From contig OZ245369.1 in assembly GCA_965226635.1 (NCBI GenBank), positions 972,972 to 996,971 of the forward strand: a DNA stretch of 24,000 nucleotides, read 5' to 3'. Position 1 is the stretch's first letter; each line of letters opens with the position of its first letter. Position numbers and translations under genes: made by a program. Source of the DNA: Desulfobacteraceae bacterium. GTDB taxonomy: Bacteria; Desulfobacterota; Desulfobacteria; Desulfobacterales; Desulfobacteraceae. The notes under the pieces are model-generated. The model did not search any database, was not told where the DNA came from, and worked only from the letters and a program-made list of their open reading frames with translations. Below are positions 8,597-23,807 of the stretch, piece by piece.

Positions 8597-8695
8597 TAAG
8601 AACTCATTAAATTTATTAAAATTTTTTAGTTTTTCTATTGACAAATGTACGCAAAAATTTTGCGCGCCTTGAAAATCTTATTTCAAGGAGGCACA

Positions 8696-9030
8696 ATGGC
8701 GCGCATTATAGTCCCAAAACAACAATTAAAGTCCCTGAACTTTGACAATTTCAAATTCCCTTTGGTAGAGTTGCATCCAATGGCACCAGAATTAAAATCA
8801 CGAGGTGATCGACCTTTGAAAATGACCTTTGAGGACCAGCTAAATGCGTTGATTTATTTTCATCTCCAGGAGCATAAATCAGCCCGTCACTTGGTTCAGG
8901 ATCTCAAAGAAAATGTTTTTGCCAAAGAGCACATCGCTCCAGATGGAGGTATTAGCCGTAGCAGTTTTTCTGAAGCGATAAATAGCCGAGGTCTTGATCA
9001 GCTCCAGTTCTATTTTGAAAAAAGCCGCTT
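8696..9030 (+). pseudogene. Truncated IS4-family (DUF4372-type N-terminus) transposase
   Basis: ATG at 8696 after CAAGGAGG. MARIIVPKQQLKSLNFDNFKF..PLKMTFEDQLNALIYFHLQEHKSARHLVQDLKEN..SRSSFSEAINSRG resembles the N-terminal DUF4372 region of IS4-family transposases. The catalytic DDE part is absent, and the reading frame runs into unrelated sequence near 9030. Confidence 0.6.
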
Positions 9031-9032
9031 AA

Positions 9033-9194
9033 AAAACTGTCCAGTTTTACTTGACCACGTCACTGAATTTTGGAGAATGGTCAAAGGTGTTTGGTGACAA
9101 GAAAATGACAACCGCTCTTCTGGATCGTCTCACCCATCATTGTGAGATAGTTGAGACCGGAAACGAGAGCTGGAGATTGAAGAGCAGGCAGTGA
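9033..9194 (+). pseudogene. istB: C-terminal remnant of IS21-family IstB helper ATPase
   Basis: The frame translates ..[48 protein letters not shown], the conserved IstB C-terminus (F.EW..VFGD...A.A.LDRL.HH..I....G.SYRLK). A 45-bp tail follows and ends ..GATTGACA at 9239, which is a TGT.. terminus read outward. Confidence 0.75.
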
Positions 9195-9239
9195 TTCTTT
9201 TTTAGCTCCAGGGGGGTCAAAATTGGACGCCGATTGACA

Positions 9240-9401
9240 CTCCAGAAGTTCTATACGCTTCTGTCTACATAAATCTTTTAAAATTTCACCAACTCGACGT
9301 CTAAATTTCCCGTACAACTTCTTTTTCCGGTATTTTGGCACAAATACCACATGATATTTGCAATCCCATCTCACATGAGATAGGCTTTCCCAATCGTGCA
9401 T
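9240..9401 (-). pseudogene. tnpA: N-terminal 54 codons of an IS200/IS605-family Y1 transposase TnpA, interrupted
   Basis: MHDWESLSHVRWDCKYHVVFVPKYRKKKLYGKFRRRVGEILKDLCRQKRIELLE is the conserved IS200 TnpA N-terminus. The HUH/catalytic Tyr part is missing, and homology stops exactly at the IS21 end (9239/9240). Confidence 0.8.
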
Positions 9402-18068: not shown

Positions 18069-19526
18069 TTAGCCGATGAGGGCGGGAATCCCCGGAATCA
18101 TGCCCACAATGGCCATGGCACCGGTGCTCACCACAAAGGCGGCCCCGGGAATGACCAGGCGGTCCATGTGGGTGAGGATCTTGGAGCGTTCCCCGTCCCC
18201 GATGAGGCTGTTGTTGTCCAGGAACATGGTCAATGCCCAGCCGAACACGGGGTTAACAAAGGCAGAAGAAAAAATGCAGATTCCTGCGGTCTGGCAGTCC
18301 TTGGTCTCTTTAACCATGGCCATACCCGCCTCCAGAAGCGGGAGATAAACCCCCACCAGCAGGGCGATGCTGAGCACGGGGCGCCACACGGCAATGTCCA
18401 TGGGATAGCCCAGAACCAGGACCACAATACAGATGATGCCGGTGAGGATGGCCCCGCCCGGAATGGGGCGTTTGGCAATGGCCGCCGGAATCATATAGGT
18501 GCCCCAGGAAGAGGTGATGCAGCCGGAACCGAAGATGGCGCAGACCACCTGCCGCAGGGAACAGCCGATCATGGTGTCGTCCACTTCCATGACCACCTCA
18601 TTGGCCTCTTCCGGATAGTTCATCTCCTGGAAGATCCGATGGCCCAGGAAATCCGGCGGCCACATGGCCACGGCCAGGATGGCAAAGGGAAGGGAGGCAA
18701 TGAAGTGGGACACACTGGGAAGACCGATTTTCCAACCGGTATCGGCCCCCCACCAATAAAAGGGGTTCAGGTTGGGCAACCCCGGTGAGGTGGTGAATTC
18801 AAAGGGCGCTCCCAGGCCCAGGGCCACCAGGGCGGCGGTGAGGGAACAGATGGGAATGGCCAGCCAGCGTTTCTTGATCCGGGCCAGGTAGGCGTAAAGG
18901 ATCAGGTTCACAAACAGGACAAAAAAGCCGATATATCCCATGTTGATCCCGTGGGCCCAGTCCATCATGGCCGATGCCTGGCCCAGGGTGCCCTTGGCGC
19001 CCAGGAAGACCAGCAGGCCCCCGGCCACCCCGGCACTGGTGGCATTGATCAGCCGGGATCCCCCCTTGGTGATACTGAGAATCACCCCAAACAGTGCAAT
19101 GAGAATCCCCAGGGCAAGGGGATGGGTTCCCGAAGCCGCCATGAGGGGAATCAAGGGCATCATGGGGCCGTGGATACCGGGCAGGTTGGCCCGGGGATTA
19201 AAGGTCCCTGAAAACAAAATTACAAACAACAACGAGACCACCAGCATGTCCACTCTTACGTTTTCAACGATAAAGGCGGTGTCCAGTCCGTACACGTCTG
19301 CAAAGGCCCGGGTCAGTGCGGAACACATGACCACCAGGCCGATGGTACCGGCAATGGCAGGAATAAAGTCCTCCAGCTCAATCCGATAATCACGGAACGG
19401 CAGGTTCAGTCCCCAGCGCCTGGGCTTCATAATGGACAGCTCATGGTCCAGGTAATCTGACCGCGTTTCAAACTCACTGCAGGACTTATGCAGGGTCCGG
19501 TAACGCGACGAATCCGTCTCTTTCAT
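18069..19526 (-). CDS. Polytopic inner-membrane protein, putative permease of unidentified family
   Basis: ATG at 19526 lies 6 nt after AAGGAGG (reverse complement of 19533-19539). The product is about 485 aa with at least 10 hydrophobic segments (e.g. IAGTIGLVVMCSAL, LVVSLLFVILFSG, LALGILIALFGVILSI) and a soluble N-terminal region of about 40 aa. I could not confidently match it to a family. Confidence 0.7.
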   Translation of the reverse strand: MKETDSSRYRTLHKSCSEFETRSDYLDHELSIMKPRRWGLNLPFRDYRIELEDFIPAIAGTIGLVVMCSALTRAFADVYGLDTAFIVENVRVDMLVVSLLFVILFSGTFNPRANLPGIHGPMMPLIPLMAASGTHPLALGILIALFGVILSITKGGSRLINATSAGVAGGLLVFLGAKGTLGQASAMMDWAHGINMGYIGFFVLFVNLILYAYLARIKKRWLAIPICSLTAALVALGLGAPFEFTTSPGLPNLNPFYWWGADTGWKIGLPSVSHFIASLPFAILAVAMWPPDFLGHRIFQEMNYPEEANEVVMEVDDTMIGCSLRQVVCAIFGSGCITSSWGTYMIPAAIAKRPIPGGAILTGIICIVVLVLGYPMDIAVWRPVLSIALLVGVYLPLLEAGMAMVKETKDCQTAGICIFSSAFVNPVFGWALTMFLDNNSLIGDGERSKILTHMDRLVIPGAAFVVSTGAMAIVGMIPGIPALIG

Positions 19527-19589
19527 CCGAATCCTCCTTAAGGTAGGGCTATGAAATAAAGGGTGTTTATTTAGTGAACAGCATTCGGC

Positions 19590-19619
19590 CTTATAGGTTA
19601 ACCCATTGCTTTCTGTCAA
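19590..19619 (-). promoter_or_regulatory. Putative sigma-70 promoter of the permease gene
   Basis: On the minus strand: TTGACA (19619-19614), 18-nt spacer, TATAAG (19595-19590). Confidence 0.35.
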
Positions 19620-19864
19620 GAAAAGATCATATTTTGCAAAAAATAGAAATTTTTATCTGGATTTCGCAATATATCTAATCAAACCCCAAACCCCGGATTG
19701 ACAGGTCCCTGGGATACGATAACACTTTCGTCCCTTGGAAAAATTCCAATTCCGAAAATTCAGTACCACAGGGTGCCACAAAAAAGAACCCCACCCTTTT
19801 TGGTTAAACGCTGTACCAAAAATTCAAAACCCCCTTCTTCACCGGGAATTGGCACCCGCTTCCT

Positions 19865-19963
19865 CCCGGGGGAAGGCCATGGCTCTTTTTCACCATTCCA
19901 GGGTTCCGGGAGCTACCCTTTTCCGCCATCTGAATCCAAACCTCCCTGCCCCGGGGGAAGGCC
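19865..19963 (+). repeat. Pair of 14-bp direct repeats CCCGGGGGAAGGCC, 85 bp apart, in a C-rich non-coding spacer
   Basis: Exact copies at 19865-19878 and 19950-19963. Confidence 0.9.
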
Positions 19964-20001
19964 CCAATCCCCCGCCCCTTGAAAAGAGATGCAAAAAGTG
20001 C

Positions 20002-20032
20002 TTGACACGGCCCCGCCGCATATGTTCCTATA
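20002..20032 (+). promoter_or_regulatory. Possible promoter for the aromatic leader / DAHP synthase transcript
   Basis: A perfect TTGACA (20002-20007) is followed at 18-19 nt by TCCTAT/CCTATA. The -10 element is weak, so this is tentative. Confidence 0.3.
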
Positions 20033-20063
20033 CGTAGATACAAACAAGGAAAATATAACCCAT

Positions 20064-20144
20064 ATGAAATTCACCACCGCAGACAACACTCGTTTTTATT
20101 ACTGGTATTTTAGATACCTGGGGTTGCCTGTGCGCGAAGATTAA
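20064..20144 (+). CDS. Aromatic-amino-acid-rich leader peptide (26 aa): MKFTTADNTRFYYWYFRYLGLPVRED
   Basis: ATG at 20064, TAA at 20142-20144. Seven of eight consecutive codons (20094-20117) encode Phe/Tyr/Trp. A strong terminator lies directly upstream of the DAHP synthase gene, 25 nt after the leader stop. Confidence 0.65.
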   Translation: MKFTTADNTRFYYWYFRYLGLPVRED

Positions 20145-20168
20145 TGGGATAAAAACATAATCTTAAAA

Positions 20169-20205
20169 GGCCGCAGGCGATACCGCCAGCGGCCTTTTTG
20201 GGTTT
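20169..20205 (+). terminator. Attenuator: rho-independent terminator in the DAHP synthase leader
   Basis: GGCCGC-A-GGCG / ATAC / CGCC-A-GCGGCC (20169-20194) is followed by TTTTTGGGTTT. It sits 42 nt before the aro gene ATG, so it must be bypassed for expression. Confidence 0.75.
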
Positions 20206-20246
20206 CAACGGCGGTCTCCCCAAGGTAAAAAAAAAGGAACACTGCC

Positions 20247-21311
20247 ATGAAACAGACCTATGACATCCGCGTCAAAACATTCAAACCCCTCACCTCTCCG
20301 GCGCAGATGAAGACCCAGCTCCCGGTATCCGATACCGTGGCCGACGTGGTCCTTGAGGGCCGCAGGGAAGTGGAAGACATCCTCTCCGGCAAGGACAAAC
20401 GGCTCCTGGTCATCTCCGGCCCCTGCTCCATCCACGACACAGAGGCCGCCATGGACTATGCCAAACGGCTGGCCGCCCTTCGGGAAGAGGTCAAGGAGGA
20501 CATCTGTCTGGTCATGCGGGTCTACTTTGAAAAACCCCGGACCACCGTGGGCTGGAAGGGGCTGATCAACGACCCCTTCCTGGATTCCTCCTATAATGTG
20601 GAACAGGGACTGCGCACGGCACGGCAACTCCTCATCGACATCAACGGCCTGGGCCTTCCCACGGCCACGGAGATCCTGGATCCCATCACCCCCCAATACA
20701 TTGCCGGTCTGCTCACCTGGGTGGCCGTGGGTGCCCGGACAACGGAATCCCAGATCCACAGGGAAATGGCCTCGGGCCTTTCCATGCCCGTGGGCTTTAA
20801 AAACGGCACCGACGGAAGCCTGGGTGCGGCGGTCAACGCCATGCAGGCGGCCAAGGCCCCCCAGCACTTCCTGGGGGTGGATCCCGAAGGTTTCTCCGCC
20901 GTGGTGGCCACCACGGGCAACCCCTATGGGCACATGGTCCTCAGGGGCGGTGTCCAGCCCAACTACGATCCCATCTCCGTGGGCCGGGCCCAGGACCGCC
21001 TCCGGGAAAAGGATCTTCTGGACGGCATTGTGGTGGACTGTTCCCATGACAACTCCGGTCAAAAATGCTCGGGCCAGGCATTTGTCTTCAAATCCGTTGT
21101 GGACCAGCGCCTGGACGGCAACGACCGCATTGTGGGCCTCATGCTGGAGAGCAACCTGAAGGCGGGAAACCAGAAATGCGTGGGCGACGGCAGTTCCCTT
21201 GAATACGGGGTCTCCATCACCGACGAGTGCATCTGCTGGGACAACACCGTGGGCCTGATCCGATGCGCCCATAAAAAACTGGTCGCAGCCCAGTCCAAGG
21301 CCGGTAAATAA
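20247..21311 (+). CDS. aroF: 3-deoxy-7-phosphoheptulonate (DAHP) synthase, class I alpha (AroF/AroG type)
   Basis: LLVISGPCSIHD, VMRVYFEKPRTTVGWKGLINDP, GARTTESQIHREMASGLSMPVGFKNGTDGSL, VVDCSHDNS and YGVSITDECICW. From memory these motifs are nearest to E. coli AroF, but the isozyme and feedback specificity cannot be assigned. Confidence 0.93.
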   Translation: MKQTYDIRVKTFKPLTSPAQMKTQLPVSDTVADVVLEGRREVEDILSGKDKRLLVISGPCSIHDTEAAMDYAKRLAALREEVKEDICLVMRVYFEKPRTTVGWKGLINDPFLDSSYNVEQGLRTARQLLIDINGLGLPTATEILDPITPQYIAGLLTWVAVGARTTESQIHREMASGLSMPVGFKNGTDGSLGAAVNAMQAAKAPQHFLGVDPEGFSAVVATTGNPYGHMVLRGGVQPNYDPISVGRAQDRLREKDLLDGIVVDCSHDNSGQKCSGQAFVFKSVVDQRLDGNDRIVGLMLESNLKAGNQKCVGDGSSLEYGVSITDECICWDNTVGLIRCAHKKLVAAQSKAGK

Positions 21312-21534: not shown

Positions 21535-21610
21535 TTATGGATTTGCGTGGTTGCGGGGCAATACAGCCCCTCACCCCGGGTTAGACCGATAATTTTTGGA
21601 GAAAGATAAA

Positions 21611-21997
21611 ATGATACAGGCAATATTCGTGGGCAGTGACAGAGACCTCTTTGCGGAACTTGAACACGTCTTGAATCAGCAATCCCTGGAATCCCTCTGG
21701 ACCGACACTGGAAAATCTGCCCTGGCCCTGCTCACGAATTTGCCTTCCAACGATAAACGGACCGGGGTCCTTGTCATCACCGATGAAACCCTGGACGACA
21801 TGAGTGGAAGGGAACTTATTGAGCAGACCATTACCCAGAGTCCCATGACCAACTGTGCTGCAATAAGTTCCCTTCCCTCTAAGGAATTCCACGAGGTGTA
21901 TGAAGGCCTCGGCATTCTCATGGCCCTGCCCCAACGGCCCACAGCCGATGACGGTCAGGCATTGGTGGCGCATCTTCAACGGATTGCCGCCCTGTAA
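21611..21997 (+). CDS. Hypothetical protein with a CheY-like (pseudo-receiver) pattern
   Basis: ATG at 21611 after GGAGAAAG. MIQAIFVGSD.., VLVITDETLDDMSGRELIE and AAISSL resemble the receiver beta1/beta3/beta4 layout, but the conserved Lys and acidic pair are not evident. The ORF-track TTG start at 21596 is less likely. Confidence 0.55.
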   Translation: MIQAIFVGSDRDLFAELEHVLNQQSLESLWTDTGKSALALLTNLPSNDKRTGVLVITDETLDDMSGRELIEQTITQSPMTNCAAISSLPSKEFHEVYEGLGILMALPQRPTADDGQALVAHLQRIAAL

Positions 21998-22005
21998 GGC
22001 AGGCC

Positions 22006-22908
22006 ATGGAACAAGGACGCAACATGATTATCAGCATTGCAAGCGGCAAAGGCGGCACCGGTAAGACCACAGTGGCCGCCAACCTCATCACCGCCCTCCA
22101 GGGAAACGTCACCCTGCTGGACTGCGATGTGGAAGAGCCCAATGCCCATCTCTTTTTAAATCCGAACCTGACCGGAACGGAAAAGGTCATTGCCCCGGTG
22201 CCCGAGATTGACCAGGACAAGTGCAACCATTGCAAAAAATGCATGGACCTGTGCCAGTTCAACGCCATCGCCGTCATGGGCAAGACCGTTGTCACCTTTC
22301 CCGAACTCTGCCATTCCTGCGGGGGATGCAAGGTCATCTGCCCCGAAGACGCCATTACCGAAAAGGAACGGGTTCTGGGGCACATTGAAACCGGCACGGT
22401 GGACGCCGCCAAACTGGGAGCCCCGGACCAGGGCGAGATCAAATTCGCCCACGGCAGGCTCGACATCGGACAGGTCATGGTACCGCCCATTATCAAACAG
22501 GTAAAAACCCATGCCGACCCGGATGGGCTCACCCTCATTGATGCGCCTCCGGGCACCTCATGCCCTGTGATCGCCGCCATGAAGGACACGGATTTTGTCC
22601 TTTTGGTCACCGAGCCCACGCCCTTTGGCCTCCACGATCTGACCCTGGCCGTGGAAGCCGTGCGTCTCATGGGACTGCCCCACGGCCTTGTCATCAATAG
22701 GGCCGGCATGGGCAACGACGATGTCAAAACCTATGCACGGTCAAACAAGGTTCCCATTCTCATGGAAATCCCCTTTGACAAACGCATTGCCCAGGCATAC
22801 TCACGGGGGGAACTCATTGTTTCCTGCCTGCCCGAGTACCGGGAAAAGTTTGTCAGGCTCCATGCCGATATACAGCAGCTTGTTGAAGAGGGGAGGAACG
22901 CCCAATGA
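22006..22908 (+). CDS. MinD/Mrp-like P-loop ATPase with an inserted 2x[4Fe-4S] ferredoxin module
   Basis: Deviant Walker A SGKGGTGKTT. CNHCKKCMDLCQ and CHSCGGCKVICP clusters are inserted after the P-loop. Then IDAPPGTSCPV and LVTEPT. An alternative start is the ATG at 22024. Confidence 0.85.
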   Translation: MEQGRNMIISIASGKGGTGKTTVAANLITALQGNVTLLDCDVEEPNAHLFLNPNLTGTEKVIAPVPEIDQDKCNHCKKCMDLCQFNAIAVMGKTVVTFPELCHSCGGCKVICPEDAITEKERVLGHIETGTVDAAKLGAPDQGEIKFAHGRLDIGQVMVPPIIKQVKTHADPDGLTLIDAPPGTSCPVIAAMKDTDFVLLVTEPTPFGLHDLTLAVEAVRLMGLPHGLVINRAGMGNDDVKTYARSNKVPILMEIPFDKRIAQAYSRGELIVSCLPEYREKFVRLHADIQQLVEEGRNAQ

Positions 22909-23807
22909 AAGAACTTGTTATCCTCAGCGGAAAGGGCGGAACCGGTAAAACCAGCATCACAGCCTCCTTTGCCACCATGGCCAAAAACGCCATTCTCTGT
23001 GATGCCGATGTGGACGCCTCGGACCTCCACCTGGTCACGGCGCCGGACATTCAGGAAACCCATGATTTTAAAGGCGGCAACGAGGCCCGGATTGATCCCG
23101 ACCTCTGCATGGCCTGCGGCCTCTGCCAGAGCCTGTGCCGGTTCAACGGCATCAAGGATCCGGAAACCCAGGACGGCCCCTATTCCATCGACGGCCTCAA
23201 CTGCGAAGGCTGCGGGGTCTGTGTGACCCTCTGCCCGGTCCAGGCCATTGAATTTCCCCAGAAGGTCTGCGGCCAGTGGTTCTCCTCACAGACCCGGTTC
23301 GGACCCATGGTCCATGCCCGGTTGGGCATTGCCGAAGAAAACTCCGGTCGCCTGGTTACCCTGGTGCGGGAACAGGCCAAAAAACGGGCCCGGGATCAAT
23401 ACAAGGAGCTCATCCTCACCGACGGCCCTCCCGGCATCGGTTGCCCAGTCATCGCCAGCATCGGCCAGGCCAACGCCATCCTCATCGTGGCCGAACCCAC
23501 GGTATCGGGCATCCATGACATGGAACGGGTGGCCAAACTGGCAGCCCATTTCAAGATCCCGGCCATGGTCTGCATCAATAAACACGATCTGAACCCGGAA
23601 CAGAGCACCACCATTGAAGGGCTGGCCCGGACCCACCAGATTGAGTTCATGGGCAAGGTTCCCTTTGATCCGGAATTTACCCAGGCCATGATCCAGGGCA
23701 AATCCGTGATGGAGACCGCCCCGGACAGCCAGGCCGCAGCAGCGGTGAAACAGATATGGGACCGGGTGATGGCCCATCCGGCCATGACCGTTGAGCGGAT
23801 CATGTAG
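22905..23807 (+). CDS. MinD/Mrp-like P-loop ATPase with an inserted 2x[4Fe-4S] ferredoxin module (paralogue)
   Basis: ATGA start/stop overlap with the preceding gene. SGKGGTGKTS, CMACGLCQSLCR, CEGCGVCVTLCP, TDGPPGIGCPV and IVAEPT. Both proteins are 300 aa. Confidence 0.85.
   Translation: MKELVILSGKGGTGKTSITASFATMAKNAILCDADVDASDLHLVTAPDIQETHDFKGGNEARIDPDLCMACGLCQSLCRFNGIKDPETQDGPYSIDGLNCEGCGVCVTLCPVQAIEFPQKVCGQWFSSQTRFGPMVHARLGIAEENSGRLVTLVREQAKKRARDQYKELILTDGPPGIGCPVIASIGQANAILIVAEPTVSGIHDMERVAKLAAHFKIPAMVCINKHDLNPEQSTTIEGLARTHQIEFMGKVPFDPEFTQAMIQGKSVMETAPDSQAAAAVKQIWDRVMAHPAMTVERIM

Follow-up and report, generated by a model that had tools for sequence, protein, structure and literature searches.

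In a 24,000-nt stretch of the genome of a Desulfobacteraceae bacterium (assembly GCA_965226635.1, contig OZ245369.1, positions 972,972 to 996,971 of the forward strand; hereafter the window), the gene for a class I-alpha 3-deoxy-D-arabino-heptulosonate 7-phosphate (DAHP) synthase of the aroF/G/H family (positions 20247-21311; hereafter aroG) is preceded by an element that is very probably a classical ribosome-mediated, or leader-peptide, transcription attenuator controlling that gene. A leader open reading frame (ORF) of 26 codons plus stop (20064-20144; MKFTTADNTRFYYWYFRYLGLPVRED) contains the putative regulatory codon run F-Y-Y-W-Y-F-R-Y (20094-20117, codons 11-18), in which seven of eight codons are aromatic. 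An intrinsic terminator hairpin (GGCCGCaGGCGauacCGCCaGCGGCC, 20169-20194, -19.9 kcal/mol), followed by a UUUUU run (20195-20199), lies between the ORF and aroG, and all these features are on the + strand. The ORF and its run of seven aromatics in eight codons had been noticed in a preliminary description made from the sequence alone, and all their coordinates hold. The DAHP synthase ATG is at 20247, as also stated there, and the gene has NCBIfam matches well above cut-offs (TIGR00034 aroFGH, 470 bits for a cut-off of 173; NF009395, 496 bits for a cut-off of 343).

Across the six frames of the window, a single stop-free stretch of eight codons, the run of the leader, has at least seven aromatic codons, where block shuffles give a mean expectation of 0.005, and shuffling the bases of the leader ORF itself yields P = 5e-5 for the aromatic run. 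Aromatic codons represent 31% of the leader, compared with 6% in ordinary genes of the window. The ORF is preceded by a Shine-Dalgarno site, AAGGA (20046-20050, + strand), and its UAA stop codon (20142-20144) is 102 nt away from the aroG ATG, with the strong terminator in between. Two other aromatic-rich frames of the window were discarded as chance occurrences, namely one at 190 (- strand), which comes after a stop codon and lacks an ORF context, and one at 9313 (+ strand), which is antisense to an IS200-like transposase fragment. The region 8645-9400 contains insertion-sequence debris, including an IstB-like C-terminal fragment (9051-9194, + strand) and an IS200/TnpA-like ORF (9081-9401, - strand); the presence of the latter on the opposite strand accounts for the spurious frame at ~9313.

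Four segments of the leader transcript, all on the + strand, can form alternative helices. Segment 1 (CCGCAGAC, 20059-20092) is the 5' strand of a 1:2 hairpin, the anti-antiterminator, and pairs with 20119-20148 in the minimum-free-energy fold. The latter stretch, segment 2, is common to the 1:2 and 2:3 helices; it spans leader codons 19-26 and the stop codon and has the core GUUGCCUGUGCGC (20123-20135). Segment 3 (CCGCAGGC, 20169-20182) is the 5' strand of the terminator, completed by segment 4, and it can alternatively pair with segment 2. As expected, segments 1 and 3 are alike, since both pair with segment 2. Folding of the region 20040-20250 gave z = -3.9 against dinucleotide shuffles, and the minimum-free-energy fold of the free RNA combines a long 1:2 hairpin, with the aromatic codons in its loop, and the 3:4 terminator. 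The 1:2 duplex (-23.7 kcal/mol) was matched by 1 of 300 shuffles. The same proportion was as good as the 2:3 duplex between 20123-20135 and 20170-20181, which involves the terminator 5' arm and loop and has the same energy as the terminator (-19.9 kcal/mol each).

The very stable terminator of the preliminary description is thus present with its U-run, and it starts 24 nt downstream of the leader stop. A simple terminator scan of the window did not detect the hairpin at 20169-20194, because an A.A mismatch interrupts its stem. The antiterminator pairing put forward in the same description, GCCUGUG (20126-20132) with CGCAGGC (20172-20178), is real, but those 7 bp are the core of a longer helix of ~12 bp. 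Similarly, segments 2, 3 and 4 had been seen in it but segment 1 had been missed. As segments 1 and 2 are paired in the free RNA, the element has the make-up of a full four-segment attenuator of the trp type.

A scan with the DAHP synthase protein, with one genome per species, returned 80 loci. The same layout was found directly 5' of the class I-alpha DAHP synthase gene in 19 related loci, 18 of which are whole; the last one, L085, ends at a contig edge and comprises only segment 2 and the terminator. The common layout consists of a TTGACA box, a Shine-Dalgarno site, an ORF of 18 to 27 codons with 7 to 9 Tyr, Phe or Trp codons, and an intrinsic terminator. Conservation of the small ORF and its aromatic run in relatives, a check suggested in the preliminary description, is thus found in the 18 related loci that include the region. 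Among the seven closest genome loci (57-73% protein identity), all six of delta-proteobacterial origin (L001-L005 and L007) have an aromatic-rich small ORF upstream of the gene (MNTRKTGKFYFYYRYYFYTRLPVLR in L001), and no aromatic-rich leader ORF was found upstream in L006, which belongs to an Opitutae metagenome-assembled genome (MAG; 59% protein identity). A metagenome scan yielded six complete examples and an incomplete one. The analyses below use a 13-member set (the window, L001-L005, L007, L081-L084, L086 and L088) and a 20-sequence set (the window and the 19 related loci).

In all 13 complete members, an intrinsic terminator is located 16-32 nt past the leader stop. An A/G-rich Shine-Dalgarno site of the AAGGA or AGGGA type was found in 11 of them and in L161-L166, and no clear site precedes the leader start in L004 (TTTAGAGTAAAATT) and L081 (CAGAAAGTTGTTTCAGC). 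In 1.7 Mb of locus sequence, stop-free windows of eight codons with at least six aromatic codons are 16 times commoner within 400 nt 5' of aroG than in the rest.

A protein search found the enzyme to be common in Desulfobacteraceae, with examples in Desulfobacter, Desulfobacula, Desulfotignum and Desulfospira. Exact-protein look-ups provided six independent loci, three of them from close relatives (86-92% DAHP synthase identity) and the other three from Desulfospira joergensenii, Desulfobacter hydrogenophilus and a Desulfobacula MAG. The leader ORF is present in all six. A covariance model, R1, built from 13 loci without these six, matches each of them (62-104 bits, E <= 2e-11). In the window, R1 found nothing beyond the element, apart from the reverse complement of the terminator.

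The hairpin is followed by a run of five to nine T in all members but L164, from Desulfospira joergensenii. In that locus (1024-1140), the stem is followed by GCUUAAACUCUUC, without a U-run, and the segment UCUGCCUGU is kept; this attenuator may be decaying or may work differently. Eight members have a second strong intrinsic terminator, in tandem, before aroG, 13-17 nt past the first T-run (L003, 2941-2971; L004, 1815-1844; L005, 2864-2892; L007, 2925-2948; L081, 1918-1945; L083, 937-967; L084, 1942-1970; L086, 1868-1896). The window and its closest relatives have a single terminator.

Segment 2 is complementary to both segment 1 and the terminator 5' arm in all 13 members, and for most of them the observed duplex energies are reached by less than 1% of shuffles. 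A plain MAFFT alignment of the 13 sequences shows 89% pairing in the 2:3 helix, with compensatory changes in 6 of 12 pairs. These figures are 88.5% and 6 of 12 in a 20-sequence alignment fitted solely to the rival 1:2 plus 3:4 structure, compared with 28-46% pairing in slid controls with the partner shifted by 1-3 columns, and the covariation score of the 2:3 helix was reached by 0 of 500 shuffles (20 sequences). In L002, for instance, segment 2 reads GCCCAUGG where the others have GCCUGUG and segment 3 reads CCGUGGGU where the others have CGCAGGC, the CCC change in the former being matched by the change in the latter. The 3:4 terminator is 97.8% paired over the 20 sequences, and three of its pairs are changed on both sides. 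The compensatory stem changes to be looked for according to the preliminary description are therefore found in both the antiterminator and the terminator. RNAalifold recovered the terminator alone from the raw alignment. As for the 1:2 helix, it is 70% paired over 20 sequences and four of its pairs are changed on both sides. This pairing figure is depressed because both MAFFT and Infernal misalign L005 and L086 by one codon, and per-sequence duplex energies were used in place of an alignment of segment 1; by this measure, at most 3 of 300 shuffles are as good as the 1:2 duplex in 10 of 13 members.

In all 13 members, aromatic codons are more numerous in the frame delimited by the Shine-Dalgarno site, start and stop codons than in the other frames (7-9, vs 1-7). 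This argues against the idea that the ORF is untranslated, with aromatic codons that reflect a U/A-rich loop, and that the hairpin belongs to a terminator or RNA element that is constitutive or regulated in another way, for instance a riboswitch, a T-box or a protein-dependent, TRAP-like attenuator. A U/A-rich stretch is indeed present between segments 1 and 2 in all members, translation of the leader is what we infer, and the Shine-Dalgarno spacing is long in the window, all of which would suit such an element. However, in the three closest relatives (86-92% identical DAHP synthases), the aromatic codons of the run vary at synonymous sites only, the differences being a TAC/TAT site and a non-aromatic codon (AGA, AAA or ACA), and the flanking spacers diverge freely. 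The aromatic run thus appears to behave as coding sequence. The stop codon is also at a fixed distance past the UGCC core of segment 2, 14 nt in 9 of 13 members, and no conserved structured aptamer is present besides the alternative helices. No Rfam family, T-box included, accounts for the region: there was no match in the whole window at gathering thresholds, and at E <= 10 the region 19620-20260 gave chance matches driven by the terminator, with no Phe_leader or Trp_leader among them. A T-box is further disfavoured by the lack of a GGUGGNACC core, and TRAP-type attenuation was rejected on the grounds that 20040-20246 contains one (G/U)AG triplet, as opposed to an array of 9-11 triplets spaced by 2-3 nt. 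We therefore regard a non-translated element of this sort as very improbable.

The end of the leader behaves differently from the run. The family consensus of segment 2, GGUCUGCCUG, overlaps the last leader codons, which are read G-L-P (tail G-L-P-V). Its third codon positions are conserved, and L164 harbours the same RNA segment in a different frame (...TRSACIALI), which indicates that the leader tail is constrained as RNA and not as peptide. The same features bear on whether the ORF might be a gene for a functional aromatic-rich micro-protein, equipped with its own terminator, devoid of regulatory role and adjacent to aroG by chance. A start codon (ATG, GTG or TTG) is present in every complete member, usually after a Shine-Dalgarno-like site, and a strong terminator is located downstream, as for a stand-alone gene. 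Nevertheless, the peptide is poorly conserved, apart from its richness in aromatic residues and its G-L-P tail, which is constrained as RNA and of which the frame is changed in L164. Its length varies across the family over the range given above, and four leader peptides scanned against Pfam and NCBIfam matched no family. The ORF is always found directly before aroG despite varying upstream neighbours, and a micro-protein would leave the covarying 2:3 helix unexplained. This possibility is exceedingly remote in our view.

Returning to an attenuator, the codons of the 13 leaders (61 Tyr, 37 Phe and 9 Trp in total) point to Tyr as the main signal and Phe as the next, with Trp as a minor, non-universal input. 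Tyr and Phe codons are universal, and Trp codons are missing from 5 of 13 leaders and from L165, i.e. from 6 of 19 complete leaders. The leaders of the window and its three nearest relatives have one Trp codon each. The initial proposal that a single leader integrates all three end products thus holds only in part, Trp codons not being universal in the family. The 13 leaders favour U-ending codons (TAT 51 vs TAC 10; TTT 32 vs TTC 5), compared with near-even usage in ordinary genes of the window (TAT 17 vs TAC 15; TTT 42 vs TTC 31). Selection for wobble codons that are decoded slowly could account for this bias, or it may simply follow from the A/U richness of the loop.

Upstream of the leader, the window harbours an exact TTGACA match (20002-20007, + strand), a putative promoter -35 box, followed by a possible extended -10 element, TG-n-TCCTAT, with an 18-nt spacer (20023-20031, + strand; TG at 20023-20024 and TCCTAT at 20026-20031). 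In 12 of 13 members, a TTGACA or TTGACT box is found 40-100 nt before the start of the leader ORF, as it is in the close relatives L161 and L163, in which the TG of the extended -10 is kept at the same alignment position. Transcription is predicted to start near 20038-20040.

Combining these features, transcription would start slightly 3' of the conserved TTGACA box, and in the nascent leader RNA the 1:2 hairpin (20059-20092 with 20119-20148) would form first, before a ribosome translates the 26-codon ORF. With plentiful aromatic amino acids, and hence charged Tyr-, Phe- and Trp-tRNAs, the ribosome would reach the UAA codon, its footprint extending over segment 2. With segment 2 covered, segments 3 and 4 would be able to pair and form the terminator, and transcription would end before aroG. 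When aromatic aminoacyl-tRNAs are scarce, the ribosome would stall early in the F-Y-Y-W-Y-F-R-Y run, holding segment 1 apart and leaving segment 2 exposed. The core of segment 2 (20123-20135) would then pair with segment 3 (20170-20181) once the latter is made, preventing terminator formation and allowing RNA polymerase to proceed into the DAHP synthase gene.

We folded the RNA with a 31-nt mask standing for the ribosome, using both the nascent RNA up to 20183, i.e. before segment 4, and the full-length RNA. In the nascent RNA, the probability of the antiterminator is ~1 with the A site on F11 to W14, and it is 0 with the A site on Y18 or on the stop codon. The mechanism outlined in the preliminary description, in which the antiterminator is freed by a stalled ribosome and masked by one that has reached the stop codon, is thus supported by this folding analysis, which had been suggested there, along with conservation and helix covariation.

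Several observations weigh against a straightforward attenuator of this kind. At equilibrium, the full-length RNA forms the terminator with a probability of 1.0 under every mask, implying that the decision must be kinetic, as it is in classical systems. In the nascent, untranslated RNA, the 2:3 helix is thermodynamically preferred to the 1:2 helix, and default termination would thus also rely on the 1:2 hairpin forming first. A ribosome stalled at Y15-Y18 would start masking segment 2, and perhaps only part of the run is effective. The 1:2 helix covaries less convincingly than the others and lacks significance in L002 and L004. With 13 nt between them, the AAGGA site and the leader ATG are rather far apart. 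As for the promoter, its -10 hexamer is weak or ambiguous, and a consensus scan of the window, hampered by this weakness, detected no promoter. Finally, both the translation of the leader ORF and its response to charged tRNA are read from sequence features.

It might also be envisaged that leader translation acts through coupling or reinitiation at the translational level, or through protection against Rho, and not through an intrinsic terminator switch. Leader genes have been proposed to boost downstream translation (PMC4833913), and the L164 stem, without its U-run, suggests that intrinsic termination may not be universal. However, the distance between the leader stop and the aroG ATG is far beyond the ~10 nt discussed for reinitiation, 19 of 20 members have a canonical stem and U-run, and the eight members with tandem terminators argue that transcription termination is the controlled step. 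A translational or Rho-dependent mechanism is therefore highly unlikely, leaving transcription attenuation as by far the best description of the element.

The aroG gene has its own Shine-Dalgarno site, AAGGAA (20234-20239, + strand), which is kept in close relatives. Among solved structures, the closest to its product is the Tyr-sensitive AroF of E. coli (396 bits), with 368 bits for the Phe-sensitive AroG. Residue Gly210 (20874-20876 in the window) aligns with a Gly of AroF and with Ser211 of AroG. In work by Hartmann and colleagues from 2003, this Gly/Ser position reportedly separates Tyr- from Phe-regulated isoenzymes in yeast. Gly210 hints at feedback inhibition by Tyr, which would fit a Tyr-dominated leader, and it is plausible that sensitivity to Tyr in the enzyme and richness in Tyr codons in its leader may be correlated.

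The genes around aroG and its leader were also inspected. In several Desulfobacteraceae, aroG is followed by a gene for a receiver-domain-like protein (~125-133 residues) and by one for a ParA/MinD-type ATPase with 4Fe-4S ferredoxin inserts (21596-23807 in the window; also in L161, L164 and L165). Two such ATPase genes lie in tandem in the window, and only the first is visible in the loci of its relatives. No terminator was found between aroG and the receiver and ATPase genes in the window. On the other side, the divergent neighbour of the leader in the window is a gene for a DUF3360 membrane protein (18069-19619, - strand), and in L161 (594-1256) and L163 (228-893) a gene for a GntR/FCD-family regulator directly precedes the leader. 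These differences indicate that the leader is associated with aroG itself, whatever lies further upstream. The divergent intergenic region between the DUF3360 gene and the leader is C-rich and unusually long (445 nt). It contains an exact 14-nt direct repeat (CCCGGGGGAAGGCC, 19865-19878 and 19950-19963), each copy of which is inside a small hairpin, and a terminator-like site was flagged by the scan at 19960-19941 on the - strand.

Beyond this family, non-alignable Tyr/Phe-rich small ORFs with terminators (MKVTRGGCGYCYYFFTGCLPAGGGLVC is an example) also precede class I-alpha DAHP synthase genes in Dehalococcoidia/Chloroflexi (L025, L040, L054, L047, L070, L071, L074, L032 and L141, all from MAGs) and in metagenomic lineages (L091, L123 and L125). 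The Dehalococcoidia/Chloroflexi leaders fall into at least three subtypes. Complementarity between the segment that follows the run and the terminator 5' arm is significant in L047, L091, L123 and L125 and weak in others, and R1 does not reach the Chloroflexi-type leaders. It is quite possible, if still somewhat doubtful, that the element of the window is one of a large, uncatalogued set of Tyr/Phe-rich attenuators at the entry of the shikimate pathway in several phyla. If so, anaerobes would commonly regulate the first committed step through translation-coupled, multivalent sensing of Tyr and Phe, and sometimes of Trp, in place of TyrR/TrpR-type repressors, and the codon mix of the leader might follow the feedback specificity of the enzyme encoded downstream.

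For Desulfobacteraceae themselves, the attenuator is a probable route for the control of carbon entry into the shikimate pathway. To our knowledge, TyrR/TrpR-type control of these genes is undescribed in these sulfate reducers, although we made no search for such control. The element represents a well-supported family of regulatory RNAs without an entry in Rfam, Pfam or NCBIfam, which annotation pipelines either skip or call as a hypothetical small gene, as in L162, where a 33-residue gene is called. The family supplies a covariance model and natural compensatory variants for tests, and it might provide a useful part for engineered sensing of aromatic amino acids. The understanding of attenuation itself is unchanged by it.

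We found no description of an aroG leader in delta-proteobacteria or Desulfobacterota in the searchable literature, subscription-only papers being outside its reach. The element is an uncatalogued family in Desulfobacteraceae; the concept itself is already known. The closest precedent is the aroR leader of Corynebacterium glutamicum, located before aroF, which was predicted earlier to be part of an attenuator (PMC4046766). This attenuator is experimentally supported, read-through having been described as rising under Phe limitation (Neshat et al. 2014, J Biotechnol 190:55, as summarised in PMC11802643). The system reportedly responds to Phe but not to Tyr (PMC11802643). Both systems have a short leader with Phe and Tyr codons before a DAHP synthase gene, i.e. 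at the same metabolic step, and ribosome stalling raises downstream transcription in C. glutamicum, as proposed here. The likeness can be stated as a functional analogy. C. glutamicum is an actinobacterium, its leader has three regulatory codons, F-Y-F, as opposed to 7-9 in the present family, and it is Phe-responsive, whereas the Desulfobacteraceae leaders are Tyr-dominated and often include Trp.

A second precedent is uORFC-13-1 of Acholeplasma, a predicted upstream ORF with an intrinsic terminator before aroF, known from 24 examples (Brewer et al. 2021, RNA Biol, PMC8632094); the same paper mentions that attenuation had earlier been hypothesized for aroF of E. coli (PMC8632094). Here too, an ORF and a terminator precede a 3-deoxy-7-phosphoheptulonate synthase gene and are proposed to sense aromatic aminoacyl-tRNA. 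However, uORFC-13-1 is confined to Acholeplasma and environmental sequences, its signal is a U-run coding for at least one Phe and not a Tyr/Phe/Trp run, and it is a prediction. The DAHP synthase genes of E. coli are under the control of the TyrR and TrpR repressors, as stated in PMC11802643. The view of the element as unusual in the preliminary description was overstated, given the C. glutamicum attenuator and the Acholeplasma prediction.

In its architecture, the element resembles trpL, pheL (upstream of pheA) and pheM (upstream of pheST) of E. coli. It has the same four-segment logic of 1:2, 2:3 and 3:4 pairings, its regulatory codons are 5' of segment 2, and its stop codon is placed such that a terminating ribosome would mask segment 2. 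It differs from them in that it has no homology to the Rfam Trp_leader or Phe_leader families at E <= 10, precedes another gene and mixes codons for three amino acids. In this last respect, it resembles multivalent leaders, such as those of ilvGMEDA (Leu, Val and Ile) and of the thr operon (Thr and Ile), which respond to several end products of a branched pathway. As in those systems, one leader has codons for several end products, and a shortage of any of them would relieve termination. The amino acids and pathways are different, and control is exerted here on the common first step and not on a set of shared enzymes.

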